24,688 bases of DNA from a virus (Duplodnaviria > Caudoviricetes): positions 1-24,688 of IMG/VR virus record IMGVR_UViG_3300027419_000190; one strand, given 5' to 3'. Below the pieces are notes generated by a model that saw nothing but the letters and a program-made list of their open reading frames with translations, searched no databases and was not told the DNA's origin. How positions within the stretch are numbered: position 1 is the first letter of the stretch; each line of letters starts with the position of its first letter. The position numbers and the translations under genes are program-made. Below, piece by piece: positions 17 through 14,660 of this stretch.

Positions 17-45
17 ATTTTACTTTACAAACCAAAGGTTGTCAA
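17..45 (-). promoter_or_regulatory. sigma70-like promoter (TTGACA-17 bp-TAAAAT) pointing out of the left end of the window
   Basis: Minus strand reads TTGACA (45-40), a 17-nt spacer, then TAAAAT (22-17). Same architecture as the promoters at 13055-13083, 21989-22017 and 23931-23959. Confidence 0.65.
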
Positions 46-125
46 ATCGGACTATCAAAAGCGAAAAACTGCTTGGCTTCGTCAAGGGTGTATTTGGGGT
101 TTAGGTTGTTTATTATTTCAGGCAT
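42..125 (-). CDS. possible 27-aa ORF (MPEIINNLNPKYTLDEAKQFFAFDSPI) or 5' fragment of an interrupted gene
   Basis: The ATG overlaps the 3' end of the upstream glycosyltransferase gene, as in the rest of the coupled operon. Its TGA lies inside the TTGACA -35 box. Confidence 0.3.
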   Translation of the reverse strand: MPEIINNLNPKYTLDEAKQFFAFDSPI

Positions 126-1090
126 TTGACTTCTTCTTTTTTTAGTTTATCTAAATCTTCTTTTGTCCATCCTTTAACTGGCCAGAATTTTTCCACTAAC
201 CACGAAACCGGATAAATCTGTCCGGGGCATTTTCCTTCCCAAATCATATCTTTCACTCTTTGTTTTGTTCGCTGACATTCTCTTCCTGATTGCGTGTAGG
301 GGAAGCCGAAGACATCGCCTTTAGTTCTAAAACAGTGGCTATACCAGGTTTTGTGATTTATTAATACTTTTCCTCCGCTTAACCACATTTTGCATGCCAG
401 CTCGATGCCCTGCGAACCCCATGAGCCTAAATCATCTCCACATAATTCCAACTCCCAATATTTTTCTCTAGTACACATGAAAAAGCTCCCTTGGAGCGAC
501 ATTGATTGAGTTAGTCCGGTTTCTTCTAGGTCTTTTTTATACTCATCTCGTAATGTATATTCATTCCAATATTGAAAATGCGGAAGGCTGTCAAAACAGT
601 AAACTCTTGAATTAGTACCTCGTCTCGGTTTCCATACTAATTTCTTTTTCATAGTGCTTCCACAACCTGGACAAATGGGTTTGACATCTTGATAAACTTT
701 GAATCCACATTTGTAACATTTGAAATCATAAACGTGAAGATTCTTCATGACGGGAACAATTATTGCATTATCTCCTGCCTTCTCAAATGCTTCAAACATT
801 TTCTTATCAAAGTCTTTATCAAAAGAAGTGTGAGCGTCTGCCTTGCACACATACTTTGCTTTTGATAATCTTGCACATAGATTAGTCATCTTTCTCTGAC
901 CGATGGTTTCTGGAGAATAAATAACGCTAACTCTTGGATGTTGAAGTAATGGGGGATTACTCCATTTACCGTCTAGCCCAACAATCACTTCGGTCTCTTC
1001 TGAAGTATTGGCTAAAATATCTTCTACTGTGTTTTTTAAAAACTCCTCTGTGTTGGCAGGAATTAAAAATGAGAGCTTGTATTGTTTCAT
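113..1090 (-). CDS. GT-A fold glycosyltransferase (GT2-like with GT27/ppGalNAc-T-like motifs) with an inserted Zn-ribbon
   Basis: N-terminal LSFLIPA GT2 strand; DxH motif (KADAHTSF); C-terminal GSFF..REKYWEL...WGSQGIELACKMWLSGG...YSHCFR block; CYKCG...CPGCG insertion. Confidence 0.85.
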   Translation of the reverse strand: MKQYKLSFLIPANTEEFLKNTVEDILANTSEETEVIVGLDGKWSNPPLLQHPRVSVIYSPETIGQRKMTNLCARLSKAKYVCKADAHTSFDKDFDKKMFEAFEKAGDNAIIVPVMKNLHVYDFKCYKCGFKVYQDVKPICPGCGSTMKKKLVWKPRRGTNSRVYCFDSLPHFQYWNEYTLRDEYKKDLEETGLTQSMSLQGSFFMCTREKYWELELCGDDLGSWGSQGIELACKMWLSGGKVLINHKTWYSHCFRTKGDVFGFPYTQSGRECQRTKQRVKDMIWEGKCPGQIYPVSWLVEKFWPVKGWTKEDLDKLKKEEVKCLK

Positions 1091-1091
1091 A

Positions 1092-1850
1092 TCACCATTG
1101 TGTTAATTGATGAAGGTATTGCCCTATCCACTCATCGTGGAGGGCTTTTAAATCCCAATACGGCACTTCTTCCAGTTTCACTTCTTTCCAATTCACAGGG
1201 GGATGTTTGAAGTCCGATAGAGATGTTTTAGGAGAGGAAAAGGTATGTCTGTGCCTGATGTCGATGTTCGGTAGCTCTGACCGCCAGACTTCAAATGTTT
1301 CATCAGAAAATCCACCTCTTCTTCGGGGTTTGGTTCCCGGTTCATAACCCATGACACGACCCCATCTGGGTTCTCTGGCCCTGTCTTTGTCCCAACCCTT
1401 TGATTCCACATAATCCAATCTATCCTGAAAGTGTTTCAACGCTGTTTTTCGATAACAGCAAAGAGCCGATAGAGAATGCAGTCCATCGTAGGTAATAGCG
1501 AAGTCTTCTTTCACAGACCATCGGTAGTTATTGATGTTGTAGTAATAGATGTAATCAGTAGGAGGAGTAAAGTCGAAATGTGATTTGTGATAAAGTAAAT
1601 CGTGTTCAAGAAAGTAAACTATGTCTGTATCAAGAGCTTTCAACGCAGTCACAATCTGAAAAAGCATTGTTGGATATGACCTTTCCCGGTCTGTGATACA
1701 AATGTTTGTTCCTAGGTCAATCGGTTTGTGTAAGGACACAGAAACAATAGGATAAGGACAATTCTCTCTAAGTGTCTGACGACACTTTTCTAATATAAAT
1801 TCTTTGGGTCGGTTGTCGGTGTAGAAGATACAGCCCTTCGTTTTTTCCAT
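1092..1850 (-). CDS. putative GT-A-like glycosyltransferase
   Basis: VYFLEHDLLY acidic motif in the DxD position; paralogous to 3075..3788 (IVSVSLHKPIDLGTNICI vs VISVTQRPMIFGKNICV); cluster context. Confidence 0.6.
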   Translation of the reverse strand: MEKTKGCIFYTDNRPKEFILEKCRQTLRENCPYPIVSVSLHKPIDLGTNICITDRERSYPTMLFQIVTALKALDTDIVYFLEHDLLYHKSHFDFTPPTDYIYYYNINNYRWSVKEDFAITYDGLHSLSALCCYRKTALKHFQDRLDYVESKGWDKDRAREPRWGRVMGYEPGTKPRRRGGFSDETFEVWRSELPNIDIRHRHTFSSPKTSLSDFKHPPVNWKEVKLEEVPYWDLKALHDEWIGQYLHQLTQW

Positions 1851-1851
1851 A

Positions 1852-2475
1852 TTATTTTCGTATGAAGAACCAAGAAAGCATTACATCATTCTTAGTTTCT
1901 TCTTCTAATGGTTTAGACCGTCCGAGAATGTAAAAGTTTTCAATTCCGTTAGCTTCCACATATTCATCCACAGCCCGTCCCACTTCCTCATGCTTTCGGT
2001 ATCTTTGGGGTAGAGAGTTTATTTGAGGGTCGGTGCAAGCATAATCATGTCCTGAAACTATTCCACCTTTCCGAACCTTCTTCGACCATTCTCTGATGTC
2101 TTCAACGACGAAACGGTAACTGTGGTCTCCGTCAATGTACACGAAATCGAGTGATTCATCTTTGAAATCTGTTACACACTGTGCTGACCTCTTCCTGATA
2201 ACTTCGCAGTCGTAAGGTTTCAGTCTTTCAATGGCTCGGAGACATCTGGCATCTTGTTGAACCTGGCTTTGTCTTCCTCTGGCCTTCCAAGGGTCGATTC
2301 CATACATCTTTATTCCCTCTTTACAGAACTTTTCAGTGTACTCTCCTTCCCAAATTCCCACTTCTACGCCTATATTATAACACATTTCCTTGAAAAAAAC
2401 AGGGAGTTCATCCCTGGAACAGTCTGGAATTAAAAAAGGTTTTTCCTTTTTTTCTAATGCTTCTGAAATTTTCAT
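1852..2475 (-). CDS. class I SAM-dependent methyltransferase (Methyltransf_24-like)
   Basis: GVEVGIWEG motif I, GIDPW, LDFVYIDGDHSY and GGIVSGHDY motifs. Confidence 0.9.
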   Translation of the reverse strand: MKISEALEKKEKPFLIPDCSRDELPVFFKEMCYNIGVEVGIWEGEYTEKFCKEGIKMYGIDPWKARGRQSQVQQDARCLRAIERLKPYDCEVIRKRSAQCVTDFKDESLDFVYIDGDHSYRFVVEDIREWSKKVRKGGIVSGHDYACTDPQINSLPQRYRKHEEVGRAVDEYVEANGIENFYILGRSKPLEEETKNDVMLSWFFIRK

Positions 2476-2479
2476 AAAT

Positions 2480-3097
2480 TTAATAGTGTTTTTGCATAAA
2501 ATAACTTAAATCTCTATCCTTAAAGTCGTCTTTGGTTCCTAAGACCCAAAAATTCTCAAAATCATAACTCTTCACAAAGGCATCTACCACGTCTCCAACG
2601 TGTCTCACAATCCTAACGCCTTCGGTAGAGTAATAATCGTGACCTGCGATGACCCCTCCCTTTCTAACCTTCCTGCACCACTGAGCCAAATCCATCGCTA
2701 CATAACCGAATCCGTGGTTGCCGTCTATGTAGACGAAGTCTAGTGAACGGTCGGGGAAATCATCCAGAGCATCCATTGAAAGTTTCTTGACTAACTTACA
2801 GTTAGGATAATCTTTCGTCCTTCCTTTGGCGATTTCATAGACTTCATCTATTGTTCTTCCACCTTTAATGCTGACTATTTTTCGGTAAGTATTGTCTCTC
2901 GTATCCTGCCAAGGGTCAATTCCTGTGATGTCTAACCCAGCCTCGCAATAATCAACGATGTTTTCTCCCCAGGAGACTCCGATTTCAACACCTTTCTTGA
3001 AACCCAGTTCCTTGAAAAGACCCGGCAGGTCTCGGCGAGAAGCTCCCGGTATCCAGTAAGGTAAACCTTTTTTATCAATGTATGACTTTAATTCCAT
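2480..3097 (-). CDS. class I SAM-dependent methyltransferase (Methyltransf_24-like)
   Basis: GVEIGVSWG, GIDPW, LDFVYIDGNH and GGVIAGHDY motifs. Start moved to the ATG at 3097 (MELKSY) to match the paralog 1852..2475. Confidence 0.9.
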   Translation of the reverse strand: MELKSYIDKKGLPYWIPGASRRDLPGLFKELGFKKGVEIGVSWGENIVDYCEAGLDITGIDPWQDTRDNTYRKIVSIKGGRTIDEVYEIAKGRTKDYPNCKLVKKLSMDALDDFPDRSLDFVYIDGNHGFGYVAMDLAQWCRKVRKGGVIAGHDYYSTEGVRIVRHVGDVVDAFVKSYDFENFWVLGTKDDFKDRDLSYFMQKHY

Positions 3098-3788
3098 CTC
3101 GTATAATCGTATAAAATTTAGCTCTAAAATCTTTCCCTGAACCCCAGTATGGGATGTCATAGATTGGTTCTCTGATAGATGAAGTGTAGTTCCTCATACT
3201 CTGGGAAGTCTTGATTTGTACAACGGGTATCTCAGTTTCGTAAAACAAAATATCCTCCTTATTAAAGACATCCTCTCTTTTTGCATGGAACTTCTCTTTA
3301 GGGAAGTTTTTTTGTTCTTCCTTATAATCCCAATCTTCGTCTCCTTTAAATAATTCCTCTAATGTTTTTCGATAGAACTCTGTCCCAACAATTTGTGCAT
3401 GTGTTGCTCCACCTGGTTTCTTAAAAAAATACTTTCTGTGCTGACCCATCACCATGAGGTTATCATTCCGATAGCACTTATCCAGTCTTTCTGGAACAAA
3501 TTTGAAATAATCCGGTCCATAGAAAGTATCTGCCTCGCATGAAAGAGCAAAAGGTGTCTTTATGTTCTGTAAAGCTATAAGTGTTTGTTTAAAGAAATTT
3601 TTTCCAGAAACTCCTACATTGTCTCCTACGCAAATGTTTTTACCAAAAATCATCGGTCGTTGCGTCACCGATATAACATCTAGGTCTCCTTTGTTTTTTA
3701 TTATGTTATCCACTACTCTTTGCTCAAATTCAGGATATTCTCGATTGCTACTACAATAAAAAATCGTAATTAAATCTTTTAGTTCCAT
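3075..3788 (-). CDS. putative GT-A-like glycosyltransferase
   Basis: FALSCEADTFY motif aligns with FLEHDLLY of 1092..1850; the two also share a C-terminal (I/V)PYW motif. Confidence 0.55.
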   Translation of the reverse strand: MELKDLITIFYCSSNREYPEFEQRVVDNIIKNKGDLDVISVTQRPMIFGKNICVGDNVGVSGKNFFKQTLIALQNIKTPFALSCEADTFYGPDYFKFVPERLDKCYRNDNLMVMGQHRKYFFKKPGGATHAQIVGTEFYRKTLEELFKGDEDWDYKEEQKNFPKEKFHAKREDVFNKEDILFYETEIPVVQIKTSQSMRNYTSSIREPIYDIPYWGSGKDFRAKFYTIIRDGIKVIH

Positions 3789-4225
3789 ATTTTTAATTCA
3801 GCTTGTTTACGCCTATTTATAGCTTCTGACTTGCTTTTAAAATAACCAATAAGAGTGGTTTTTCCGTCCTTCGTTATTCGAACTCTCCAAGATTTATAAT
3901 TCTTATACCAATTAACACCCCTGTAACCTGAAGTGCTATCACTTCTCAAGCCAGAATTTATAATATTCTCTGAACGAGTAACCATTCTCAGATTTTTCCT
4001 TGTGTTATTTAGTTTATTTCTATCTTGGTGGTCAACTTCTTTTCCTTTCTGACGGTTTCCCATTATTAGATTATGCATCAATATTGTTTTCTTGTTTTTT
4101 CCACCCCCGATGTCTCTAACTGCATAACCCGTCGACAAGAGATACCACTTCCACTGGTTCAAAAACTCAAAATCATCATCATCAACCATCGCTCTTTTTC
4201 CTTGTGTCAATTTTATATACCTCAT
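3779..4225 (-). CDS. HNH homing endonuclease with C-terminal AP2 DNA-binding domain
   Basis: VDHQDRNKLNNTRKNLR..T..EN..N HNH_3 motif; TSGYRGV..W.V.I...IGYF AP2 motif. The start at 4225 gives an ATGA overlap with the upstream stop. Confidence 0.9.
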   Translation of the reverse strand: MRYIKLTQGKRAMVDDDDFEFLNQWKWYLLSTGYAVRDIGGGKNKKTILMHNLIMGNRQKGKEVDHQDRNKLNNTRKNLRMVTRSENIINSGLRSDSTSGYRGVNWYKNYKSWRVRITKDGKTTLIGYFKSKSEAINRRKQAELKIWN

Positions 4226-4800
4226 GGTTTTAGTATTCCCCATCCATGTTGCGAAAGTTCATGGACAGTCAAATTATTTTTAGAAGCAAATTCGTCCACA
4301 GCTTCTATGACGCCAAAGACTACCCCCGTGTGCTTGGCACGGTAGCGAGAATAATCATCCCCGGTAAAGAAACCTCCCTTCTTCAACTTCGGCCACCAGG
4401 CTTCTAGGTCAGCCTTGCAACCTTCTTCAGTGTGGTCAGCATCGATGTAGATAAGGTCAAAGTATTCATCCGGGAAGAACTTAGCCGCATCCACTGTGTA
4501 CATCCTCATAATCTTAGCGAATGGTTTGTCCTTAATCGACTCCATCACCGAATTATACATGCCATTTAAACGCTCCTGTGGGTAACCACAGTCGTTTCTG
4601 GCGATGATTCCGTCGTCTATCCACATATCCACCCCTACTGCGACTTCTGGGTTGTGTTCAATCATCAGATTAAAATTAAACCCTTCAAACACGCCGATTT
4701 CGGCAATCTTTTGGATGTTGTACTTCTCCATAAAAGGCCTCCAGACTCTCCTTTTATGCTTGATTTCAACTCCTCGTAAATCTTCAACCCAGGTATCCAT
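4222..4800 (-). CDS. class I SAM-dependent methyltransferase (Methyltransf_24-like)
   Basis: AEIGVFEG, FDLIYIDADH and WWPKLKKGGFFTGDDY motifs. Confidence 0.9.
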   Translation of the reverse strand: MDTWVEDLRGVEIKHKRRVWRPFMEKYNIQKIAEIGVFEGFNFNLMIEHNPEVAVGVDMWIDDGIIARNDCGYPQERLNGMYNSVMESIKDKPFAKIMRMYTVDAAKFFPDEYFDLIYIDADHTEEGCKADLEAWWPKLKKGGFFTGDDYSRYRAKHTGVVFGVIEAVDEFASKNNLTVHELSQHGWGILKP

Positions 4801-5521
4801 ATTTGTTAAAATGATTAATTAACCTTTTATTGACTAGCTCCTGTCCGAACCTATTCTTCTTCAGTCTGTGCTGGTGAAAATGCAGAACTTTGATGGGTAA
4901 CTCTGTTTGCTCGTAACAGTGTTTCCTGGTGAGAGGATTGAGATTAAAGTTATAGGTAATGTTCATTCGTTTAATCCGGTCGTTGATGTTTTGGAAATTT
5001 TTATCAGTCAGGTATTTGATAGCCACCTCATCCGAGTAAGCCTTGTAAGCCTCGATGTGATTGATTAAAGTCTTGTCAGGGTGTATATACATTCTCATCC
5101 TCATCCAGACAAAGATATCTTTGGCGTTTGGAGTGAGAAATGAACTCCCACCGTTCCAATTCAATCGGTATCCGTAATCCGTAAAACCTACATCTTTTCC
5201 TTCCAGGTCAGGTTCTGGAAACGGTTCCAACTGAAACGCATCGAAGTCATGATACCAGGTAGTTTCTGTGATAAGCCCTCGGTCGTAGAGTTCAATAAAA
5301 GCATTAATCTTCCCGGAGTACATATAAAACGGACAGATACAATCATCACTGACTTCGATTGATTTCACTCCATCATATTCATAGGGAAAATTACAAACTA
5401 ACATCATGTCTTCTTTATTCCAACCCAATTCCAATGAATTGTCAATAACAATCCTGACGAGCTTTTCATACTCAGGATTGAACTTATGGTCGGGCGAAAT
5501 GTATACGAGAAGATTTTTCAT
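4784..5521 (-). CDS. putative GT-A glycosyltransferase (GT8/nucleotide-diphospho-sugar transferase-like)
   Basis: WYHDFDAF (DxD), WNGGS, SDE, ITYN and VLHFH motifs in the order typical of GT8-like enzymes; paralog of 5986..6693. Confidence 0.65.
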   Translation of the reverse strand: MKNLLVYISPDHKFNPEYEKLVRIVIDNSLELGWNKEDMMLVCNFPYEYDGVKSIEVSDDCICPFYMYSGKINAFIELYDRGLITETTWYHDFDAFQLEPFPEPDLEGKDVGFTDYGYRLNWNGGSSFLTPNAKDIFVWMRMRMYIHPDKTLINHIEAYKAYSDEVAIKYLTDKNFQNINDRIKRMNITYNFNLNPLTRKHCYEQTELPIKVLHFHQHRLKKNRFGQELVNKRLINHFNKYGYLG

Positions 5522-6032
5522 TTTTGAATTGTTTATAATCTACTACCTCATTATTAAAATCGTGAGTCTCTATTATCCACTCCACATCTTCCACTAAATG
5601 TTCTATGGGGTATCTTCTTCCCCATTTCATTAGTGGGTCTTTCAATTTAACAATAGGACAGAGTCTAAGAATAATCGTCCTTAATCCTGATTCTTCCACC
5701 ATCTTCTGAGATTCTTGTTTGCTTCTTCCATAGGCCATCTTCTCAGCGGTAGAACTGAAATGAATCAGCTTGCAGTGATATTCCTTGCAGAGTTCGATAA
5801 CATTTTTGGTTCCCAGAACATTAGTGAAGTGGCAGGCTTCTTCATCTTGAATCTTCTTGGCCTCTCCGGCAGCGTGGATAACAAACTCCATTCCTTCGAA
5901 ATATGGTCTTATTTCTTCCTTATCTCTAATATCCTTGGTAATTGCAGTAATACTGTATCCTTTACTACTGAGATACATAAATAAGTTATGACCTATGAAC
6001 CCCCGGTATCCTAGTATTAATATCTTTTTCAT
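5484..6032 (-). CDS. NAD-dependent epimerase/dehydratase (short SDR)
   Basis: ILILGYRGFIG Rossmann motif, VIHAAG, NVLGT, FSS and the catalytic YGRSK. Confidence 0.85.
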   Translation of the reverse strand: MKKILILGYRGFIGHNLFMYLSSKGYSITAITKDIRDKEEIRPYFEGMEFVIHAAGEAKKIQDEEACHFTNVLGTKNVIELCKEYHCKLIHFSSTAEKMAYGRSKQESQKMVEESGLRTIILRLCPIVKLKDPLMKWGRRYPIEHLVEDVEWIIETHDFNNEVVDYKQFKNEKSSRIHFARP

Positions 6033-6693
6033 ACATTAAATTATATAAATTCTTAGGTAATAGTGTTGCAAATTTAGCTAGAAGATTTTCCCTATAAGGA
6101 TGAAAATGAGCAACTCTTATAGGTTCATCCGCCCACATCATATTTTCTTCCACTCTTCTTTTTCCTAAATTATAAGTAATATTCAATCTTTCAATCCTAT
6201 CATTTATATTTTCAAAATTGCTTTTTGTTAAAATCATCATTGCTCTTTCGTCATCAATTTTTTCTTCTTCTATCACAGTTTTCCATAGTTTAAAAATGTC
6301 TAACGTAGTCGGTTCAAAGAACATACTCCCTCCGTTCCACTTAGAAGACCAACCATAATCCGTCAATCCCAGTTCTTTGTCTAACTTCAAATCTATCGGT
6401 TCTAATTGCCAGGCTTCTGTGTCGTGGAACCAGGTCAGGTCATATAAATAATTATTTTCCAATAGATAACAAATGACATTTATCTTGATAGCACAACGAC
6501 TTGTTTCACTATAAAGGTCATCGGGAACTACCAGGGATTTAACGCCCATATACTCATAAGGGAAGTTCGTCGCCAGTAAAATATCTTCTACTTTCCAGTA
6601 ATTTAAAGAGTTCTCAATCTGAATTTCTATATATTTAGCGTTCTCTTCGTTAAACTTATGTTCCGGACTCACGAAAATTAGCAAATTTTTCAT
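5986..6693 (-). CDS. putative GT-A glycosyltransferase, paralog of 4784..5521
   Basis: Near-identical N-terminus (MKNLLIFVSPEHKFN vs MKNLLVYISPDHKFN); WFHDTEAW, GLTDYG, WNGGS, ITYN and VAHFH motifs. Confidence 0.65.
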   Translation of the reverse strand: MKNLLIFVSPEHKFNEENAKYIEIQIENSLNYWKVEDILLATNFPYEYMGVKSLVVPDDLYSETSRCAIKINVICYLLENNYLYDLTWFHDTEAWQLEPIDLKLDKELGLTDYGWSSKWNGGSMFFEPTTLDIFKLWKTVIEEEKIDDERAMMILTKSNFENINDRIERLNITYNLGKRRVEENMMWADEPIRVAHFHPYRENLLAKFATLLPKNLYNLMYEKDINTRIPGVHRS

Positions 6694-7478
6694 AGTTTTC
6701 CTTCTTTAACTAATTCATCATAGTATGGTTTCCAGACTTTTATAGCGTAAGCATAACCATCATCACAATTAGCTGGGTTCTCTGCTGTGCCGTTGTTATG
6801 AGTGCGTTTAAATGAACGGTGTTTATGAGCATGCCATGTGTTTTTGTTGACCATCAGTTTCCCTCCGGCTTTCCAAGTCTTGAAGACCATTTCGTGTGAG
6901 TCCTGGATAAGAGGTCCATAACCTTCCGTTTGCAGCTCGCCAATAACATCGTCCCACCACTTACGAGGCATTACCCACATTGAGCCTTGCATAGCCTGGG
7001 ATTCTTCTATTTTTAACTTGTCATTACCAGGACGTGAGACTCCAGTGAACTTTCCACCGGAAATCTTTAGTTTCATATAATCGACATAACCGTGTTCTTC
7101 CATAACTTCCCATTTTTCTGGATTTAGGAAGTATCTTCTGGCTGTCATAATCCAGTTTGGCTTGCAGTCCCTGGTAAGTTTCCTGTCATAACCTTTTCCA
7201 AACATTTGGTGTTCATCTGCTCTAAGTAAAAACTCTCCCCTCGAAACCGCCACCCCAGCATTTATAGCGTCTCTCATCCCTCGGTTTTTTCCCAAATGAA
7301 GGTATCTTACCCTAGGGTCTTGGATAATCAAATCAGCAGAAGGATAATAACCATCCCAGACTGCTATAACTTCTAATCTGTCTCCTAACTCTGATTTTTT
7401 TAGCAAGTCATCAATAGTCTTAAATAGCAACGGGTCTTTATAGCTCGGCAAAATGCAACTAAGTTTTATTTCTTGCAT
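6690..7478 (-). CDS. GT2-like glycosyltransferase with DxH motif, paralog of 113..1090
   Basis: LSCILPSY, NRGMRDAINAG, RADEHQMF (DxH), MQGSMW and WKAGGKLMVNKNTWHAHKHR motifs. Confidence 0.85.
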   Translation of the reverse strand: MQEIKLSCILPSYKDPLLFKTIDDLLKKSELGDRLEVIAVWDGYYPSADLIIQDPRVRYLHLGKNRGMRDAINAGVAVSRGEFLLRADEHQMFGKGYDRKLTRDCKPNWIMTARRYFLNPEKWEVMEEHGYVDYMKLKISGGKFTGVSRPGNDKLKIEESQAMQGSMWVMPRKWWDDVIGELQTEGYGPLIQDSHEMVFKTWKAGGKLMVNKNTWHAHKHRSFKRTHNNGTAENPANCDDGYAYAIKVWKPYYDELVKEGKL

Positions 7479-7927
7479 GTTATAAAATGATAATTATTAT
7501 CAAAACTTTTTTTCTCTGTTATCTCAAAGTCTTTGAAATCTATGTCTCCTTCCTCATAAAATAACCATTCTCTTTTGTAGGGTTTATAATCCTTACCAAC
7601 GAATCCAAAGATTGCGACTCCTCCAGGAACCAATATTCTGTATATTTCATTGACCATTAATTGTGGGCTACTTACAAATTCCAGCATGCCATTACAAAGG
7701 ATAGTGTTAAAACAATTTGTCTCCATTCCAGAGTCGCAGATGTCTCCCAGAAAAGTAGGTTTCATTCCCTTGGCTATGTCTATGGTAGGAAATCCATAGT
7801 CCCAATAACGAGACTTTCCCACATCCAACACATTGCCGCTAGCGTTTTTTTCTACCCATTCGTTATACCAGAGTCTACTTGGCGATGGGACGAAATCCTT
7901 TCTTAACTCCTTTATTGAATGGGACAT
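7466..7927 (-). CDS. class I SAM-dependent methyltransferase (Methyltransf_11-like)
   Basis: NVLDVG, GDI, FNTILCNGMLEFV and EIYRILVPGG motifs. Confidence 0.8.
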   Translation of the reverse strand: MSHSIKELRKDFVPSPSRLWYNEWVEKNASGNVLDVGKSRYWDYGFPTIDIAKGMKPTFLGDICDSGMETNCFNTILCNGMLEFVSSPQLMVNEIYRILVPGGVAIFGFVGKDYKPYKREWLFYEEGDIDFKDFEITEKKSFDNNYHFITCKK

Positions 7928-8645
7928 TATTTTTTGTTAAATATTCAAATATTGGTGCTTTGTAATTTCTGTTCTTTAACTCAGGCTTTAACCACAAAAA
8001 CTCCTGGACCAGGTCAATGTCTAGCATAGGATAACGGACTTCTACATCATAAAGTGCAGCAATCTCCTCCAGTTCATTCAGGTATTCTCTTTGCATACCT
8101 TCTCTGAAGTTAGGCCATTCGTAAAGTTCCTCTGGATACTTTCCATTAAAGGTGGACTGTTTGGGGAAGAGGGCATAGTCTGAATAAAGTTCATCTCCAC
8201 CTTGACCTGATATGCAAATCTTCTTTCCTTCCTTGGTAGCGGTGTCAAACATAAAAGCCACTCCCATAGAGGCAATGTCTTTCATCGCTGTTTCATTAAT
8301 TTTTCCCTTCAAGAAGTCGTAGTATTCTTGCCAAACATATTTTGGCATTTCTGCGATAGTGTAATCCTTTATATACTCAAGTCTCTTTTTGATGATACTC
8401 TCATCTTCATTATTGAAAATTGTATAAGCTTTAAAATCCACTCCTTGTTTCACCAACTCCTTAGTAATCGCTCCAGAGTCATATCCTGAAGATAGTCCAA
8501 TAAAACATCCGTCTACTGCTCGTTTTTTAATAGCGTTTTCAAAAGCCCTTAGCCAGTCGTCATAGTTGTCCATGTTCTGGTTGTTAAAATCAAACTCGTG
8601 GGCGTAGAACTCACTTAACTCCTTGTTTTCCCAAGTGTTGTTCAT
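7875..8645 (-). CDS. asparagine synthase C-terminal-like N-type ATP pyrophosphatase (no glutaminase domain)
   Basis: GLSSGYDS PP-loop, SGQGGDELY and EVRYPMLD motifs. Start placed at the ATG at 8645 (MNNTWE) to limit overlap with the upstream gene. Confidence 0.8.
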   Translation of the reverse strand: MNNTWENKELSEFYAHEFDFNNQNMDNYDDWLRAFENAIKKRAVDGCFIGLSSGYDSGAITKELVKQGVDFKAYTIFNNEDESIIKKRLEYIKDYTIAEMPKYVWQEYYDFLKGKINETAMKDIASMGVAFMFDTATKEGKKICISGQGGDELYSDYALFPKQSTFNGKYPEELYEWPNFREGMQREYLNELEEIAALYDVEVRYPMLDIDLVQEFLWLKPELKNRNYKAPIFEYLTKNNVPFNKGVKKGFRPIAK

Positions 8646-9432
8646 ATAACGAAAAATAATTGTTAGCCATTTTTTTAATCGTGTAATCTTCCAATATCTG
8701 AATCCTTCCACTGATTCTTCTTAAAGCACATTTTATTGACTCTACATCTCTTTCAACGATAGTTACTCCTTCTAACTCACTGGAAATTCCCACATCTGTA
8801 GAAAGAACAGGTTTGTTCATCGCCAGAGCTTCGAGCGTTGGGTTGTTGCAACCTTCGCTGATGCTGGGAATGACGAGACAATCAATCCTTTCATAAAATT
8901 TTGGCATTTCTTCATAAGGTATTCCATCAGCCTTTGCCAGCCATAAGTCTAATTCCTTGCAAGCCTGCTCTACTAATTCTAAGCCTTTGTGTTCTGTAGT
9001 CGCTCCTACAAATCCTACTGTAAAATTACTTTTAAATAACTCCGTATCTACTCCATTTGGTATATAGACCATATTTCCCTTATTTGTCAACCTTCTTAAC
9101 TTGTTTTCTAGGTCTGGATTTTGACAAACGCAACAAACTGTGTTTTGGTATATCTCTTTTAAAACTTCTTCCTTATCAAAAAACTGGTCAAGAGTGCGTT
9201 GGGAAGCGAGAGTGGTAAAAGTCTTTTCTTTGTATTTCAATATGAAATCCTTTATCTTCCCTATTCCTCCACTGAACAATATATGTATTATGTCATACTG
9301 TTCTCCGTCTGGCAAATTTTTAAAATAACAGATATCCACAGCGTGTTGAGGCCACTCACGTTTAAGAGCCTCAGCTCTGCGAGTGGTACACCAAGGAGTC
9401 CTGTCAGCATGTACAAGGAGTATTTTACTCAT
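8611..9432 (-). CDS. GT4 (GT-B fold) glycosyltransferase
   Basis: YIPNGVDTELF, VGFVG...KG and LVIPSISEGCNNPTLEALAMNKPVLSTDVG (EX7E motif). Confidence 0.9.
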   Translation of the reverse strand: MSKILLVHADRTPWCTTRRAEALKREWPQHAVDICYFKNLPDGEQYDIIHILFSGGIGKIKDFILKYKEKTFTTLASQRTLDQFFDKEEVLKEIYQNTVCCVCQNPDLENKLRRLTNKGNMVYIPNGVDTELFKSNFTVGFVGATTEHKGLELVEQACKELDLWLAKADGIPYEEMPKFYERIDCLVIPSISEGCNNPTLEALAMNKPVLSTDVGISSELEGVTIVERDVESIKCALRRISGRIQILEDYTIKKMANNYFSLYEQHLGKQGVK

Positions 9433-9908
9433 AAGATTGGCCCATCAATTAAATTCCAAAAATGAAATGACTTAATATAATAATCGTCCCAATAACCTTC
9501 ACGTTTGTTACAGAACTTTAGTCCTAAATCAGCACAAGCCTTTTTTATGTTCTCACTCTCGTGATTCCAGGGAGCGAAGAATATTTCTATCTTCTTTACT
9601 CCTCCGGTCATGCGTTTGGAATTAGTCTTCCAGTAATTCAAAGATTTTTTTAAATCTTCGTAACATTCTTCGTAACTTAATTTGGAATAATCTTTGTGTT
9701 CCCACCCATGAAGACCTATCTTAAGAACAGGAGCAGTCGCCAGATACCAAAAAAGGGCCTGATTCTCCCAGAGGTCCTTCATTATCACGGCTACTGCGTG
9801 TTGTTTTCCTTTGAACATAAATTGCTCATGCAACTCTTTGAATTTAAAAGCATCTGTATATACAGAAATATCATCATCACGGTAGAGCTTAGGTTTTGAA
9901 ATGGGCAT
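9429..9908 (-). CDS. polysaccharide deacetylase (NodB/DUF2334-like)
   Basis: YRDDD, IGLHGWEH (HxxxH) and FFAPWN motifs. Confidence 0.8.
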   Translation of the reverse strand: MPISKPKLYRDDDISVYTDAFKFKELHEQFMFKGKQHAVAVIMKDLWENQALFWYLATAPVLKIGLHGWEHKDYSKLSYEECYEDLKKSLNYWKTNSKRMTGGVKKIEIFFAPWNHESENIKKACADLGLKFCNKREGYWDDYYIKSFHFWNLIDGPIL

Positions 9909-10491
9909 GGTCTTCGTATCTTAAATATTTATGCTTCTTAATATTACCACCTATAAAATTAACTTTCAAATCGGGAAACTTTTTTAGAATAACCGGAAGA
10001 CTTAACTGGTCTCGTTGGCTCCAACGACAAATTTCAGACCACCAGGCTTCGTTAAATCTTTCTACTAACGGAGCGTGTCTTCTGATTATAAACCCTCCCA
10101 TGTACATCTTGGTATCCTCTGGAATACCTATATCTCGATAATGATTCAACTGTTCTCTCACTTCATCTATCACCCATGGAGTCCTGTTTTTAAACATACT
10201 CTCTAAATACCTTTCTTCCTTGTAAATCGTGAAGGCGTGGTTGTGCATGAAGATAGCCATATCAGCGTCTCGTAACCATCTCTTAACGTAAAATTCGGGT
10301 TCTTTTAAAAGAAAAATATTTCCATCCACCCAAATACTTACATCGCAATCAAGGAACTTGTGGGGAAGAATCTTATAAATCTTACTATTATAAACGGGAG
10401 AATGAAATTTAGAAAACTCCGAGAAAACTAAAATGTCGTCTCGGAGTTTATCTTTTTCTCCATGAATTGCAGTATATGCGGTTATTCTCAT
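9889..10491 (-). CDS. DUF616 (TOD1/MUCI70-like) putative glycosyltransferase
   Basis: AYTAIHG, KILPHKFL, SIWVDGNI, FNEAWWSEI and RDQLSLP motifs. The start at 10491 forms a TAATG overlap with the stop of the Ser-rich gene. Confidence 0.75.
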   Translation of the reverse strand: MRITAYTAIHGEKDKLRDDILVFSEFSKFHSPVYNSKIYKILPHKFLDCDVSIWVDGNIFLLKEPEFYVKRWLRDADMAIFMHNHAFTIYKEERYLESMFKNRTPWVIDEVREQLNHYRDIGIPEDTKMYMGGFIIRRHAPLVERFNEAWWSEICRWSQRDQLSLPVILKKFPDLKVNFIGGNIKKHKYLRYEDHAHFKT

Positions 10492-11432
10492 TAGAACTCC
10501 ATCAAACACTTAACAGTTATTGTACCAATCGCTGTCCCAGAAGAAGGAGATACTGAAGGACTGACAGACGTAGAGACTGAAGGAGAAGCAGACTTACTGA
10601 GTGAAGGAGATATTGAAGGGGACGCTGACCTAGAAGTTGACGGACTGATTGAAGGAGATTTGGAAAGACTGACAGACGGTGAGTAAGACTTCGATACAGA
10701 TGGACTAGCCGATGGAGACATCGAGCTACTAGCTGAAGGAGAAAGTGAGTTTGGCGGACTTACAGAAGGACTGATAGAAGGAGAAACTGAAGGGGAGATT
10801 GAAGGAGAAGCTGAAGGACTAGCAGACAATGAAACCGATGGACTTTTCGATGGACTGATTGACGGTGAAGTCGAAGGACTAGCAGACCTTGATACCGATG
10901 GACTAGTAGAAGGTGACACCGAAGAAGACCTTGAAGGACTAGCTGATGGAGATACTGATGGAGAAGCTGACTTGCTAACGGATGGGCTTATCGAAGGTGA
11001 AGCTGACGCACTCCTAGAAGGGCTGTAAGAGTTCACCGGACTGACGCTTCGGCTCACCGAAGGAGATAGTGAAGGTGATACTGACGAAGAAACGTCAGAC
11101 ACTGTTACGGCGACTTTCATCTCTTGAAATCCAAAGAAGTAATAGAGAGCCGCTATCTTTGAACCAGTGTTACCTAAGGTAATAGCGTTAGTCAGGGTTA
11201 TATCAGCCGTGCTGGCTTTCTCCAGGTTGTTGACCAACATATTGTAGTCAACAAATGTGCTTCTATCTAAAGAAACCTGCGTAGCCATTGAAACACTTCT
11301 ATTGGCAAGTCCGGCTCCAGTAAGAATCAAGGAAACCTTCTTGGCGTTAGAAATGTCTATGACCGCTGAAGTTGTGTCCACCGATACCCCATCAATCGCT
11401 GTTACTAAGACTGGAGGTATTCTGTAATACAT
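10491..11432 (-). CDS. Ser/Pro-rich mucin-like protein, probable virion structural protein with a beta-rich domain and an internal (Ser-X)n tract
   Basis: aa 1-114 is beta-strand-like, aa 115-298 is the Ser-X repeat, and a final strand GTITVKCLMEF follows. No signal peptide or TM helix. Located just after the capsid genes. Confidence 0.75.
   Translation of the reverse strand: MYYRIPPVLVTAIDGVSVDTTSAVIDISNAKKVSLILTGAGLANRSVSMATQVSLDRSTFVDYNMLVNNLEKASTADITLTNAITLGNTGSKIAALYYFFGFQEMKVAVTVSDVSSSVSPSLSPSVSRSVSPVNSYSPSRSASASPSISPSVSKSASPSVSPSASPSRSSSVSPSTSPSVSRSASPSTSPSISPSKSPSVSLSASPSASPSISPSVSPSISPSVSPPNSLSPSASSSMSPSASPSVSKSYSPSVSLSKSPSISPSTSRSASPSISPSLSKSASPSVSTSVSPSVSPSSGTAIGTITVKCLMEF
10539..11090 (-). 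repeat. degenerate coding repeat: (Ser-X)n / SPS[V/I/A/T] tract of 184 codons
   Basis: Ser occupies 90 of the 92 alternate positions from aa 115 to 297. Synonymous codons are mixed, so the DNA repeat is imperfect. Confidence 0.95.
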
Positions 11433-11436
11433 ATAT

Positions 11437-11721
11437 TTACTCTGTTACATTGTTAATTAGATTTTGCAACTTTATATATTCCCGTACGACCTTACGAGTC
11501 TGAAGAATAAGTTGCGCTTCCTTATGAGGAACGTAATCATTACCAATTATAACCTTAGGCTCACCATCTACGAAAACTGTCCCAGCTTCGCCCTCTTGGA
11601 CAGCACCTGGGTTGTAGTTCTTTTCTGCGATGAGTTCCTTGACCTTAATCATTACATCAGGAAGATTTTCGATGAAAAGATAATTTTCATAGTTTTCTTT
11701 AACTTTTTTTGGTCGAGCCAT
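11437..11721 (-). CDS. hypothetical protein (head module)
   Basis: 94-aa ORF tightly packed in the operon; basic MARPKK N-terminus. Confidence 0.7.
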   Translation of the reverse strand: MARPKKVKENYENYLFIENLPDVMIKVKELIAEKNYNPGAVQEGEAGTVFVDGEPKVIIGNDYVPHKEAQLILQTRKVVREYIKLQNLINNVTE

Positions 11722-11737
11722 ATAATTGGTTAATTAA

Positions 11738-12115
11738 TTATGATTCCTTGGTCAGGACGCCAGAGTAAGATGTGACGTAAAATGAAGTCCCATCACAGTA
11801 TACCTCTGCATAATTTCCGATAGTTCCGGCGATAGCCAGATACTTAGAAGCTACTCCGTCACCACCGAGATAAATCTTTTCCCCGGTCTGTGGGAGAAGT
11901 TGAACTATTTGAGCGGCTGTAACTTGAATTCTTGTCTTTTGTCCTTTCAGACTTGACGCTGCTGGCAACGTGAGAACGATAGTTCCGGAAGCACCAGTGT
12001 TGGTGTTGTTCTTCTCGAAATCATAAGTGTTCATATCAGCCGTAGCTGCGTTGGCTTTGACAGTGGTATTAGTATCTAAACTAGTGACCACTACGTCAAA
12101 ATTAGTATTTCCCAT
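11738..12115 (-). CDS. putative virion structural protein (capsid decoration/fibre-like)
   Basis: Thr/Ala/Gly-rich beta protein with an IVLTLPAA...G...YCDG..FYV pattern common in phage structural domains; position after the major capsid gene. Confidence 0.55.
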   Translation of the reverse strand: MGNTNFDVVVTSLDTNTTVKANAATADMNTYDFEKNNTNTGASGTIVLTLPAASSLKGQKTRIQVTAAQIVQLLPQTGEKIYLGGDGVASKYLAIAGTIGNYAEVYCDGTSFYVTSYSGVLTKES

Positions 12116-12123
12116 TTGAGTAG

Positions 12124-12185
12124 GATTGCCAATCTATATGTCTTGCGACTTCCTCTCGCACTCCTGCGAGGTCTAAATGGCAATC
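12124..12185 (-). other. predicted structured RNA element (three-way junction) in the intergenic/5' UTR region
   Basis: Closing stem GATTGCCA/TGGCAATC encloses two hairpins on the minus strand: CTCGCA-GGAG-TGCGAG and GTC-GCAA-GAC (GNRA loop). Confidence 0.55.
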
Positions 12186-12191
12186 AATTAG

Positions 12192-13025
12192 TTAATTAAG
12201 TGAAGTGTGCGGGACAGAAATTATTTTTGCGGATTTTATAGAATTGCATTTTCTACAAAGAGGTTGGATATTGTTCTTGTTGTTCTTTCCTCCTTTAGAG
12301 ATGGGATGGATATGGTCGATGGTCAGTTTCATTTCTTCATTTTCTGTCTTACCACAATCAGCACATTTGTTTCCGTGGAGTTCTTTTATTTCCAACCAAC
12401 TCTTTAGACTTATGTGATTATCATCATCCCTTTTACAACCTCTGTTTATTGCGTGATAGTTTGCGTCCTGAACCCTTTTTCTAGCTAACGCCTTGCAATA
12501 TTTTTCAGAAGCAAAGTCTGGATTTTTAAGAAGAAGCATCCGTTCTCTTGTCTGTTTCCTAGAATTGGATAGTTGTTGGCATTTTTTGGAACAATAAGTC
12601 TTATAAGGATTTCTTCTAGTATTATATGGATTGAATTCTTTTTGACATTGAGGACAGATTTTGTTAGCAATTTCTGATATTTTTTTATCTTGATTTCTTC
12701 TGAATCTAATTCTCTGTTCTTCTAATACTTTTTCAGGATTATTCTTTTTCCATAGCTCTTTGTTTAGTCTTGAGAGTTTTTTAGAACACTCAGACGAGCA
12801 AGTATAATGAACAGAATTTTTAGAAAAGAATTTTTTTCCACATATCTTGCAATTGGATTCTACCTCACCACGATATTTAGATTCCCAATAAGACTTATAA
12901 TAATCACGGTGTTTTATGTAGTTTCCTTTTGCACTACACTTTCTTGAACAATAAATTTGCTTTCTTCTCTCTTTTACCTTTGGAACAATCTCTATTCCGC
13001 ACACTTCACATTTTCTCTTTTGCAT
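12192..13025 (-). CDS. HNH endonuclease with three N-terminal CxxC...CSxxC Zn-binding repeats
   Basis: C-terminal CADCG...LTIDHIHPISKGGKNNKNNIQPLCRKCNSIK HNH motif; N-terminal CEVC/YCSRKC, CKIC/TCSSEC and CPQC/YCSKKC repeats. Confidence 0.9.
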   Translation of the reverse strand: MQKRKCEVCGIEIVPKVKERRKQIYCSRKCSAKGNYIKHRDYYKSYWESKYRGEVESNCKICGKKFFSKNSVHYTCSSECSKKLSRLNKELWKKNNPEKVLEEQRIRFRRNQDKKISEIANKICPQCQKEFNPYNTRRNPYKTYCSKKCQQLSNSRKQTRERMLLLKNPDFASEKYCKALARKRVQDANYHAINRGCKRDDDNHISLKSWLEIKELHGNKCADCGKTENEEMKLTIDHIHPISKGGKNNKNNIQPLCRKCNSIKSAKIISVPHTSLN

Positions 13026-13083
13026 ATACTTATAGGGTTATTTATTACCTTATAAGTATAACGCTCTATTGGGGACTTGTCAA
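13025..13083 (-). promoter_or_regulatory. sigma70-like promoter of the HNH gene (TTGACA-17-TATACT) overlapping a hairpin that covers the translation start region
   Basis: -35 at 13083-13078 and -10 at 13060-13055; inverted repeat TATACTTATA (13025-13034) / TATAAGTATA (13051-13060). Confidence 0.75.
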
Positions 13084-13091
13084 CCTATGCT

Positions 13092-14096
13092 TTACAGGGC
13101 ATAAGATGAGTTATCGCCTTTTGACCCCCAGCACGCGCGCCAGTTCTTATTACCAACCTGCCATCTCGCAGAGATGTCATAGATAGTATTCTTGTTCTTG
13201 TTGTCCATGTAGACAGAAGTCTGAATACCTCTTCGTTGATAAAAGATGAACGGCGAATAAAGGGAATCAATCAGGAACCAAGCTGTGTCAGAACCACCAT
13301 TTTGAGAGTTAATCCACTTAGTGGAGATAACAGTGACATTCCCATCGAAGATGTTAAGGTCATTGTTAGCTGTTCCACTTCTTTTAGTAGACTTGGTGAT
13401 AACGACAGCTGTTTCTTCCAGAGAATCAGGAACCAACAAAATCAAGCGACCAGAACCGATAGCCATCGGAAGTCCTCGGTCATCGAGTTGTCTTCGGAGA
13501 GCTTGTTTCCCGGTGCTAAGATTTGTCGGAGTCAAAGGAATACCTGACGCAGAGGCATTGCTTATTCCAGTTCCACCATCTTTACGAGGGTGAAGAATGG
13601 AACAAAGGGGAACACCATCTGAGTAAAAAGTCAGGTCGGAAGGCAGAGAAGCCTGAGCTGTGAAAGCATAGTTGAAGATAGAGAACGCTGAACGGTCAAA
13701 TTCCATATTCATTGACACGTTCAGGTCATAAGCCTCATCAAACTTGCTTTGCAGGTCATTCTCTCTGTCATCTTTTTCTTCCTCAGTTATTTCGATAGAG
13801 TTCGTCTTCTTGATGAATCGGAACACAGTCAGATAACCAGGGATTCGACTGTCAGTAGCATAGTCCTGACCCTCAGTCGTGAGTGTCGGGTATCCTACAC
13901 CAGTCTTGCTTGTGTATCTTTCTTCCGCTTTATCGGAAGTTTTTTCTTTGAAGAGACGAGTAGCTTTGTTGGTTTCCACTCCCAAAGCTGAATTTATTCC
14001 TAGAGAATAAGACATTGAAGCCTGATTCTCTACTTCAGCAAATTTGGCAGCTAATCCCTTAATCCACCCATCACCCCATGTTGCTCGTGTTTCCAT
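13092..14096 (-). CDS. major capsid protein (HK97 fold)
   Basis: 334 aa after scaffold and cement genes; DGVPLCS..HP, LLVP..LE..A, WFL and a C-terminal R..VG...WRACWGS pattern typical of Mu gpT-like capsid proteins. Confidence 0.85.
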   Translation of the reverse strand: METRATWGDGWIKGLAAKFAEVENQASMSYSLGINSALGVETNKATRLFKEKTSDKAEERYTSKTGVGYPTLTTEGQDYATDSRIPGYLTVFRFIKKTNSIEITEEEKDDRENDLQSKFDEAYDLNVSMNMEFDRSAFSIFNYAFTAQASLPSDLTFYSDGVPLCSILHPRKDGGTGISNASASGIPLTPTNLSTGKQALRRQLDDRGLPMAIGSGRLILLVPDSLEETAVVITKSTKRSGTANNDLNIFDGNVTVISTKWINSQNGGSDTAWFLIDSLYSPFIFYQRRGIQTSVYMDNKNKNTIYDISARWQVGNKNWRACWGSKGDNSSYAL

Positions 14097-14120
14097 AAAA
14101 TTAGTTTAGGTTAATTAGGG

Positions 14121-14660
14121 TTAGGCTGTTTCTGCGTTAAATTCGTGCAGAGCGATACTAACAAGGATATTCCCAGAGTCATCAGGGTCAACCCCATGAC
14201 CGTAGAAATTAGCCTCTGTTCCTTCAGTCCGGGTAGCGGTCGTTTCGAGAACCTGTCCGAATGACGAACCAGCTGAATCGATGTCGATTCGTATTCCACG
14301 AAGGTCAGAATCATTGGTTGTTCCAACTGTTCCATTACAGTCAGCCGAATAGATAGAATCTTTCGAAACATCAACCATTGCGTAATAAGTTGTATTAGCC
14401 GCTCCGGTTGTCTTTGAACGGGTGTCAGTTCCAGAAGCAGTTCCAGCTACCGGGTTGGTAGACTTAAATGGAAGCCCCTGTGCATCGCAGATAGAAGCAA
14501 TGACTCCCAAAACAGGTTTCCCGGCTTCACCTCTAAGGGCAACTCCGGTTGACATTGTTTCTACAACATCTCCGACTGCGAAAGCCAAACTAGAACCGAG
14601 AAGAATCTTCTCCAGTTTTCGTCCCACTCCGCCAATCGTTCTTTTATACTTTAAAGCCAT
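14121..14660 (-). CDS. putative capsid cement/decoration protein
   Basis: Gly/Thr/Ala-rich beta protein (FAVGDVV, PVLGV) between the scaffold and major capsid genes. Confidence 0.6.
   Translation of the reverse strand: MALKYKRTIGGVGRKLEKILLGSSLAFAVGDVVETMSTGVALRGEAGKPVLGVIASICDAQGLPFKSTNPVAGTASGTDTRSKTTGAANTTYYAMVDVSKDSIYSADCNGTVGTTNDSDLRGIRIDIDSAGSSFGQVLETTATRTEGTEANFYGHGVDPDDSGNILVSIALHEFNAETA

Follow-up and report, generated by a model that had tools for sequence, protein, structure and literature searches.

What is a cluster of 15 enzyme-like genes, several of them for putative glycosyltransferases (GTs), doing inside the head operon of a tailed phage? The question is raised by a 24,688-nt stretch of viral DNA (Duplodnaviria; Caudoviricetes), positions 1 to 24,688 of the IMG/VR record IMGVR_UViG_3300027419_000190, which we refer to as the window. 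All window genes lie on the minus strand, and the operon runs TerS, TerL, portal, scaffold, a 179-aa protein, the major capsid protein (MCP), an HNH gene, a 125-aa protein, a 94-aa protein, a protein with a long tract of alternating serines (the Ser-X protein) and then the cluster, a closely packed set made up of 15 enzyme-like genes and one HNH gene, 16 in all. An initial annotation of this DNA had proposed that the cluster glycosylates the virion. All 15 enzyme-like genes that it placed after the capsid genes are present, the tract has the 184 residues given there, and the stop codon of the Ser-X gene does overlap the next gene, sharing one base with the ATG at 10491. The run of overlapping or abutting genes that it described also holds, since 13/16 junctions from the Ser-X gene to the gene at 113 overlap and the other 3/16 are gaps of 1-4 nt; an HNH gene at 3779-4225, however, sits inside the run.

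The module is real and non-random. We consider it likely that its enzymes, acting in the cytoplasm, O-glycosylate in a mucin-like manner a serine loop carried by a likely virion protein. Four features are central to this proposal.

10491..11432, minus strand: Ser-X protein; modelled as a single jelly-roll (residues 1-113 and 304-312) whose last strand is preceded by the inserted tract; likely glycosyl acceptor and virion decoration protein
10539..11090, minus strand: Ser-X tract; 184 codons, residues 115-298, with 90/92 Ser in phase
113..1090, minus strand: GT27-like glycosyltransferase A, 325 aa; Pfam GT2; zinc-ribbon insert; final enzyme gene of the cluster; likely the initiating Ser O-glycosyltransferase
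6690..7478, minus strand: GT27-like glycosyltransferase B, 262 aa; Pfam GT2; second candidate initiator

Two GT27-like enzymes and a serine tract

The two genes that had been called GT2/GT27-like proved, by profiles and by fold, to be structurally closest to the mucin-initiating polypeptide N-acetylgalactosaminyltransferases (GalNAc-Ts). In a plain search with the gene at 113-1090, GalNAc-Ts already ranked first. When profiles built from 37 homologs of A and 39 of B were searched against the PDB, GalNAc-Ts were the best matches for A (E 2.5e-10) and for B (6s22, E 4.7e-14, positions 5-257 of 277). The model of enzyme A (predicted local distance difference test score, pLDDT, 93) matched mouse GalNAc-T1 with Z 26.6 (root-mean-square deviation, rmsd, 3.0; 271 residues aligned) and Toxoplasma GalNAc-T3 with Z 24.6, the next GT-A enzyme scoring 18.7. 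The metal-ligand residues are invariant in both enzymes (D85/H87/H252 in A; D88/H90/H218 in B), and those of A align with Asp209/His211/His344 of mouse GalNAc-T1, which are named for that enzyme in the accessible part of PMC4202792. Both proteins consist wholly of catalytic domain and have no transmembrane (TM) anchor. Enzyme A also carries a cysteine zinc-ribbon insert at residues ~120-150, in which C125, C128 and C140 are nearly invariant and which stays unaligned in the GalNAc-T matches. This insert might stand in for a lectin domain in acceptor binding.

In the tract of the Ser-X protein, serine occupies 90/92 alternate positions, accompanied by 33 Pro and 4 Thr, and all six Ser codons are used. 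AlphaFold predicted a confident beta-sandwich at residues 1-113, closed by a strand at 304-312, with residues 117-300 disordered. The best fold match of this jelly-roll was XepA (Z 12.3, rmsd 2.8, 104 aligned); other matches were YomS (Z 11.8), two subtilisin-type protease chains (9.7 and 9.5), a phage 7-7-1 capsid chain (9.3) and a Bordetella phage capsid jelly-roll (8.0). Since homologs of 122-139 aa without a tract exist, several of them likewise encoded behind the 94-aa gene, the tract is, in terms of the modelled fold, an insertion into a jelly-roll. A virion decoration protein would be recognized by a jelly-roll and by a place in the head module, and the Ser-X protein has the first in its model and the second in its gene order; we infer that it is located on the virion. 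The same jelly-roll protein, 97% identical, is encoded with versus without a tract of ~90-105 residues in P0003 and L313:8777-9427, a difference due either to natural collapse or to an assembly artefact.

The Ser phase of the tract is identical in three relatives (91/92, 92/92 and 77/78), while the residues between the serines agree at 71/92, 53/92 and 34/78, which corresponds to 99-100% conservation of the Ser phase and 44-77% of the X phase. Because the Ser phase is kept while the intervening residues drift, these alignments point to selection acting on the hydroxyls of the tract. In view of the varied Ser codons and the selection on the Ser phase, a low-complexity artefact was rejected. Elsewhere, tracts are fused to many unrelated domains: most of the 102 N-terminal parts scanned had no match, and some matched PHROG virion-structural, minor-tail and tail-fibre-assembly families or LamG or Gly-rich domains. 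With the Ser-X protein itself as bait, nothing new was found in viral contigs.

Co-occurrence of tract and enzymes in viruses and bacteria

The coupling of the Ser-X protein to the glycan cluster, as initially claimed, holds both ways across dozens of unrelated phages. Enzyme B as bait retrieved 99 viral loci, the best 80 of which were kept for counts. A tract was called when a Ser-X stretch on the same strand reached at least 40 residues, and 79 loci obtained with an unrelated HNH gene as bait were used as controls (L224 was left out as the same phage). A tract lay nearby at 64/80 enzyme-baited viral loci compared with 4/79 controls (Fisher p 6e-24), and by eye the four control tracts had no Ser-Pro periodicity. 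After 85% clustering a tract was present at 58/69 enzyme-baited loci, and where at least 3 kb follow enzyme A it was present at all 22 (22/22). For the reverse bait, a DNA pattern for the repeat was used and gave 67 contigs, of which 9 without a 40-residue tract were left out. Among the 58 kept, a GT27-like gene was found within 10 kb in 27 and elsewhere on complete genomes in another 4, 31/58 altogether compared with 0/79 controls. At nine tract-baited loci the GT27-like pair were the only GTs detected with the four GT families profiled; two tract-baited records gave generic GT2 matches only.

Within the capsid lineage, tract and cluster are both kept in L002, L004 and L005 (91-95% MCP identity, downstream DNA present) and in L313. 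Neither was found at 11 viral loci with 54-76% MCP identity, where fibre or other structural genes follow if the DNA suffices. Because the accessory gene set of L004 differs from that of the window, the glycan probably varies by strain. In a distant capsid relative (L359:907-1831), two small post-MCP proteins have Ser/Thr homopolymer-like tails and are followed by a gene that by eye is GT4-like, perhaps a parallel system.

Enzyme B also retrieved 40 loci from GTDB genomes: 22 titled as Patescibacteria lineages, 14 titled Gammaproteobacteria, 2 from other bacteria and 2 from small archaea. The title Gammaproteobacteria is doubtful, as the three of those genomes for which a size was available measure 0.9-1.1 Mb. 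One genome, G009, holds a prophage with portal, integrase, cluster and two Ser-X proteins; by eye, its locus L148 has a second glycosyltransferase-/methyltransferase-like group upstream of the terminase genes. In nine non-prophage genomes no phage genes were seen by eye within 6-20 kb downstream of the cluster. In eight of these nine the cluster is followed by a Ser-X protein (the longest 2372 aa), the exception being G005. Giant Ser-X proteins end the module copies at L139:12183-19301 (G002; 2372 aa, of which ~2040 aa are tract), L138:10195-13990 (G001) and L140:1058-12774 (G003), and all three proteins have a C-terminal domain in common, with tatC as the next gene. The nine bacterial Ser-X ORFs (open reading frames) tested showed no signal-like or TM stretch and, within their first 35 residues, no twin-arginine motif.

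In a quick midpoint-rooted tree of GT27-like sequences, 5 changes are needed to place 19 bacterial rows among the 64 viral ones, and nine bacterial rows form one clade with a Shimodaira-Hasegawa-like approximate likelihood ratio test (SH-aLRT) value of 99, a topology that fits repeated capture of the module in either direction. Searches of 401 + 401 genomes from two Patescibacteria classes with a profile of the MCP found no match. Shine-Dalgarno-like motifs are nearly absent from the window (2/26 genes). On two grounds, that the module occurs in Patescibacteria and that such motifs are scarce, the phage host is probably a Patescibacterium.

Proposed pathway and rival explanations

In the pathway that we propose, the enzymes would be translated late in infection along with the head genes, and one or both GT27-like enzymes would put the first sugar, which we infer to be of N-acetylhexosamine (HexNAc) type, from a nucleotide-sugar onto the in-phase serines. 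Alternating prolines would hold the loop extended. The remaining GT-A and GT4 enzymes would elongate the glycan, and the methyltransferases, deacetylase, amide ligase and epimerase would tailor it into a strain-variable product. The jelly-roll may then dock on the particle and display up to ~90 glycans as a brush. Least certain is the purpose of such a coat, which might shield the particle from proteases or aggregation, or might serve in adhesion to, or mimicry of, the surface of the host or its partner cell. We favour protein glycosylation because the fold and active site are GT27-like, the Ser phase is selected, the co-occurrence is two-way and no TM stretch is present. It is also possible, though we would stop short of calling it probable, that these genes represent a soluble, lectin-less branch of GalNAc-transferases together with a portable Ser-X tag that hops among unrelated virion proteins in phages of ultra-small bacteria and gives them a strain-variable glycocalyx, and that the module was acquired by Patescibacteria on several occasions and in at least one case, beside tatC, became domesticated for making giant serine filaments.

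A number of observations weigh against this proposal. Enzyme A is 16-18% identical to GalNAc-Ts. In its WGGEN motif W-G is retained and Glu is changed to Gln, while in enzyme B the acidic residue is retained and Trp is missing; both enzymes lack the ricin-type lectin domain, a listed family feature of GalNAc-Ts in the accessible part of PMC4202792. Because the motif is altered and the lectin domain absent, donor and acceptor may differ from those of GalNAc-Ts; A and B resemble GT27 by prediction yet fall short of full GT27 membership. Four of the eight claimed GTs stay unverified. The jelly-roll fold is widespread, with GOLD domains, TNF and carbohydrate-binding modules scoring Z 7-9, and XepA, the top match, bears the title of an exported protein. 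Clusters without a Ser-rich acceptor had been named at the outset as evidence that would count against the idea, and 16/80 enzyme-baited loci have no tract; a whole-record pattern search of these 16 found none, including in three records 75-89% complete. In all 16, the cluster is at or near a contig end, the sequence stopping before enzyme A or at most 1.7 kb after it, and the three more complete records are possible exceptions to the coupling. Conversely, in four records of at least 90% completeness the tracts are short and no GT27-like enzyme is present, and in L314 the jelly-roll is without a tract and the tract is on another protein. The module also works or persists in bacterial chromosomes without visible phage genes. 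In G005 two copies of the full cluster are present, and the 20 kb examined behind one of them gave no tract call. After that copy stand three 373-376-aa paralogs without a called Ser-X tract (L142:6246-9654), a possible alternative acceptor.

The strongest rival, in our view unlikely, is that the Ser-X proteins are glycosylated but non-virion, being displayed on or released from the host for lysogenic conversion, superinfection exclusion or episymbiont adhesion. It is backed by the chromosomal copies, among them the Ser-X proteins after the cluster in 8/9 non-prophage genomes, the TatC that follows in G001-G003 and the single clade formed by nine bacterial GT27-like sequences, as well as by the title of XepA. 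In phages, however, the genes for tract-bearing proteins lie between those for capsid and tail, and some of these proteins belong to PHROG virion-structural families; the bacterial Ser-X ORFs show no sign of an export signal in the residues tested; and enzyme A was found in just 3/300 sampled genomes of the phylum Patescibacteria. Alternatively, the glycan could be attached to the major capsid protein or to tail proteins, as it is in mycobacteriophages, with the tract an acceptor of minor or incidental importance. The proteins modified by Che8-type systems are capsid and tail tube, according to the accessible parts of PMC12363180 and PMC12619734, Che8 gp108 also has a Methyltransf_24 domain, and some clusters have no visible tract. 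We nevertheless regard this as very improbable, given that the MCP is highly conserved among phages with and without the cluster and that Che8 enzymes reach at most 12.4 bits on the profiles used here.

Other explanations take the glycan away from virion proteins. The cluster could be auxiliary cargo that remodels an O-antigen- or capsule-like surface glycan of the host, the tract being a plain flexible spacer. Its accessory genes are typical of surface-polysaccharide tailoring, and a study of Patescibacteriota phages, in the accessible part of PMC12911398, reads phage sugar-nucleotide genes as host-benefit auxiliary metabolic genes. This seems improbable to us: the two conserved enzymes are nearest to protein-serine/threonine transferases, and a spacer leaves the Ser-phase selection and the two-way linkage unexplained. 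Since no TM-like stretch or other membrane component was found among 440 ORFs of 53 viral clusters (0/440), work on lipid-linked host glycans is unlikely. That the enzymes hypermodify phage DNA is scarcely credible, although phage GT-A and GT-B enzymes and epimerases do glycosylate 5-hydroxymethylcytosine (accessible part of bioRxiv 10.1101/2023.12.21.572611) and the Methyltransf_24 genes carry the PHROG label 'DNA methyltransferase'. The same part of that preprint ties the DNA GTs to 5mYOX/ThyS neighbours, and action on DNA is judged unlikely because no 5mYOX/ThyS match was found in the scanned window genes (about half of the phage genome) or in 29 accessory family representatives; the genes, moreover, sit in a morphogenesis operon and have a serine tract as their partner. 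Action on DNA or on host lipid-linked glycans was another outcome that the initial annotation had named as refuting it.

Other genes of the window and known systems

The remaining genes of the cluster, the head genes before it and a site after it are as follows.

17..45, minus strand: promoter-like site after the last cluster gene; 11/12 consensus matches; resembles the site before the HNH gene 12192-13025, with a shared downstream motif
1092..1850, minus strand: putative GT-A-like protein of a core family; no significant Pfam/PDB match
1852..2475, minus strand: S-adenosylmethionine (SAM) methyltransferase, Methyltransf_24; Pfam E 1.3e-15
2480..3097, minus strand: SAM methyltransferase, Methyltransf_24; Pfam E 1.5e-13
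3075..3788, minus strand: putative GT-A-like protein, paralog of 1092-1850 by alignment; no significant Pfam/PDB match
3779..4225, minus strand: HNH endonuclease, an insertion within the cluster and no glycan enzyme; Pfam HNH_3, phrog_99
4222..4800, minus strand: SAM methyltransferase, Methyltransf_24; Pfam E 4e-14
4784..5521, minus strand: putative GT-A nucleotide-sugar transferase; no significant Pfam/PDB match, Atlas lead
5484..6032, minus strand: short NAD-dependent epimerase/dehydratase, 182 aa; Pfam Epimerase E 1.6e-15
5986..6693, minus strand: paralog of 4784-5521, 44% identical by alignment
7466..7927, minus strand: SAM methyltransferase, Methyltransf_11; Pfam E 1.6e-07
7875..8645, minus strand: Asparagine-synthase-like ATP-dependent amide ligase; Pfam; short form without glutaminase domain
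8611..9432, minus strand: GT4 (GT-B) glycosyltransferase, accessory; Pfam Glyco_trans_1_4
9429..9908, minus strand: polysaccharide-deacetylase-like protein; Pfam E 1e-4, 22.7 bits, cut-off 23.1
9889..10491, minus strand: DUF616 (TOD1/MUCI70) glycosyltransferase-like protein; Pfam E 5.4e-17
11437..11721, minus strand: 94-aa protein; after the MCP throughout the lineage, with homologs in most close and mid-range MCP relatives; no family match
11738..12115, minus strand: 125-aa small protein; relatives in L079/L081/L087 bear a Ser-X tract themselves (by eye); no family match
12192..13025, minus strand: HNH gene between the MCP and the small genes
13092..14096, minus strand: MCP; Pfam Phage_capsid_4 and Mu-like_gpT, phrog_371
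14121..14660, minus strand: 179-aa head-region protein; directly before the MCP in 17/17 viral MCP loci; no family match

Eleven cluster enzymes have a Pfam match (GT2 twice, GT4, DUF616/TOD1_MUCI70, Methyltransf_24 three times, Methyltransf_11, Epimerase, Asn_synthase and Polysacc_deac_1) and four putative GT-A proteins have none. Thus, of the eight putative GTs initially listed, the two GT2, the GT4 and the DUF616 enzymes stood in Pfam, while those at 1092, 3075, 4784 and 5986 gave no significant match in Pfam and PDB profile searches with their two families; the label GT8-like, given to two enzymes, is unverified. The four methyltransferases, the Asn-synthase-like ligase and the epimerase were all recovered, the deacetylase fell just below the Pfam cut-off, and the statement that the enzymes have no signal peptide or TM helix was borne out, no hydrophobic stretch above KD19 1.36 being present in any window cluster protein. 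For the earlier label of cement protein at 14121-14660, Pfam and PHROG give no support. HHalign gave a weak match (probability 45%) between the 1092/3075 family and the N-terminal portion of the 6690 family, and the 4784 family leans to Nucleotid_trans (PF03407), with an Atlas score of 0.96 to a cluster with 63% PF03407. The L002 homolog of the Asn-synthase-like gene has GATase and Asn_synthase domains; 250-257-aa forms recur in L026, L032 and L085, and in view of these equally short forms a broken gene was rejected.

Among 54 viral clusters with both A and B, the 1092/3075 family occurs in 51 and Methyltransf_24 in 46. Because GT4, DUF616 and Asn-synthase-like genes occur in 2/54 clusters each, the first five enzymes of the window form, as read from these gene counts, an accessory block. 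The 29 accessory family representatives mostly gave sugar-tailoring, methyltransferase and radical-SAM matches, and none matched a flippase, ThyS or a 2-oxoglutarate-Fe (2OG-Fe) oxygenase. A radical SAM/SPASM enzyme is frequent in clusters (L034:9522-10307 and 11 other loci). One cluster has a heptose-type kinase, isomerase and cytidylyltransferase set (L020:12539-15064), and another a sulfotransferase-like gene.

The cluster, which the initial annotation had allowed to continue past the left edge, probably ends at 113: all three reading frames close within ~100 nt to the left of this gene, the promoter-like site 45-17 follows, and among 43 related loci with the next ORF visible it belonged to a window enzyme family in 0/43 and was another Ser-X protein in 21/43. 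Overall, promoter-like sites occur in the window at chance level, despite the 11/12 match at 45-17. Two near-consensus sigma-70 promoter-like sites, 13083-13055 and 45-17, have a common downstream motif; since an HNH gene follows the former, the window edge may hold the start of a further mobile nuclease gene. HNH genes break the late operon at 3779-4225, 12192-13025 and 15747-16235, and close relatives have HNH at other junctions. A 53-kb metagenome contig (L326), identical to window 3095-24096, runs ~27 kb beyond the left edge.

No description of this module was found in a literature search that had subscription papers and bioRxiv supplements outside its scope, and none is given in the accessible parts of PMC12619734, PMC12582341, PMC12911398, PMC11256854, PMC4202792, PMC12363180 or bioRxiv 10.1101/2023.12.21.572611. 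As read from sequences and models, the module would be a new form of virion glycosylation by a phage, one that pairs a mucin-type-like initiator with a portable acceptor tag. Virion glycosylation by phage enzymes has so far been documented for a few mycobacteriophages, with different enzymes. Those of Che8 (gp108-110), Corndog and Myrna are likewise phage-encoded soluble GTs proposed to coat the virion, and Methyltransf_24 occurs in both systems. Che8 gp110, however, is GT25-like and gp108 is a GT2-Methyltransf_24 fusion, neither being orthologous to the pair in the window, and the accessible sources describe three Che8 genes at the genome end with capsid and tail-tube acceptors, compared with 15 genes in the head operon and a dedicated 90-serine loop here. 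In 50,697 phage records, tblastn gave no match for enzyme A, cultured phages included, and one weak match (E 8e-3) for enzyme B. If the proposal is true, mucin-like coats would be common in environmental phages, and many 'auxiliary' sugar genes would become morphogenesis genes. The proposal is directly testable, since the enzymes are small, soluble proteins and the pair plus the acceptor seem to be all that some loci contain.

The structured part of the acceptor shares its fold with PBSX XepA, SPbeta YomS and capsid jelly-rolls; identity to these is 9-14%, and they have no 184-residue insertion. Streptococcal and staphylococcal serine-rich repeat (SRR) adhesins, to which the module was initially likened, also have Ser-X repeats beside a cytoplasmic GT cluster. 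In these adhesins (GspB, Fap1, PsrP) a GT4 pair, GtfA/GtfB, initiates glycosylation, and the protein has a signal peptide, SecA2/Y2 export and an LPxTG anchor. Here, GT4 is accessory, the core is GT27-like, no export signal or anchor was seen, and neither GtfA/GtfB-SecA2/Y2-type genes nor TM segments are present in the window. This analogy is weaker than that with GT27, since it is the GT27-like pair, and not GT4, that accompanies the tract.

Eukaryotic GalNAc-Ts (CAZy GT27; mouse GalNAc-T1, 8v9q/1xhb; Toxoplasma GalNAc-T3, 8uhv) share with the phage enzymes the GT-A fold, the DxH motif with a distal His and a similar C-terminal motif, and the phage acceptor is likewise predicted to be Ser/Pro-rich. 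The phage enzymes differ in being soluble, with no TM/Golgi anchor or ricin lectin domain, in their altered WGGEN motif and low identity, in the zinc-ribbon insert of enzyme A and in being encoded by phage and bacteria. If the proposal is true, a prokaryotic and viral mucin-type pathway would bear on the origin of GT27, and initiators of Ser O-glycosylation that are soluble in the bacterial cytoplasm would be useful both for glycoengineering and for tracing where the eukaryotic enzymes came from.

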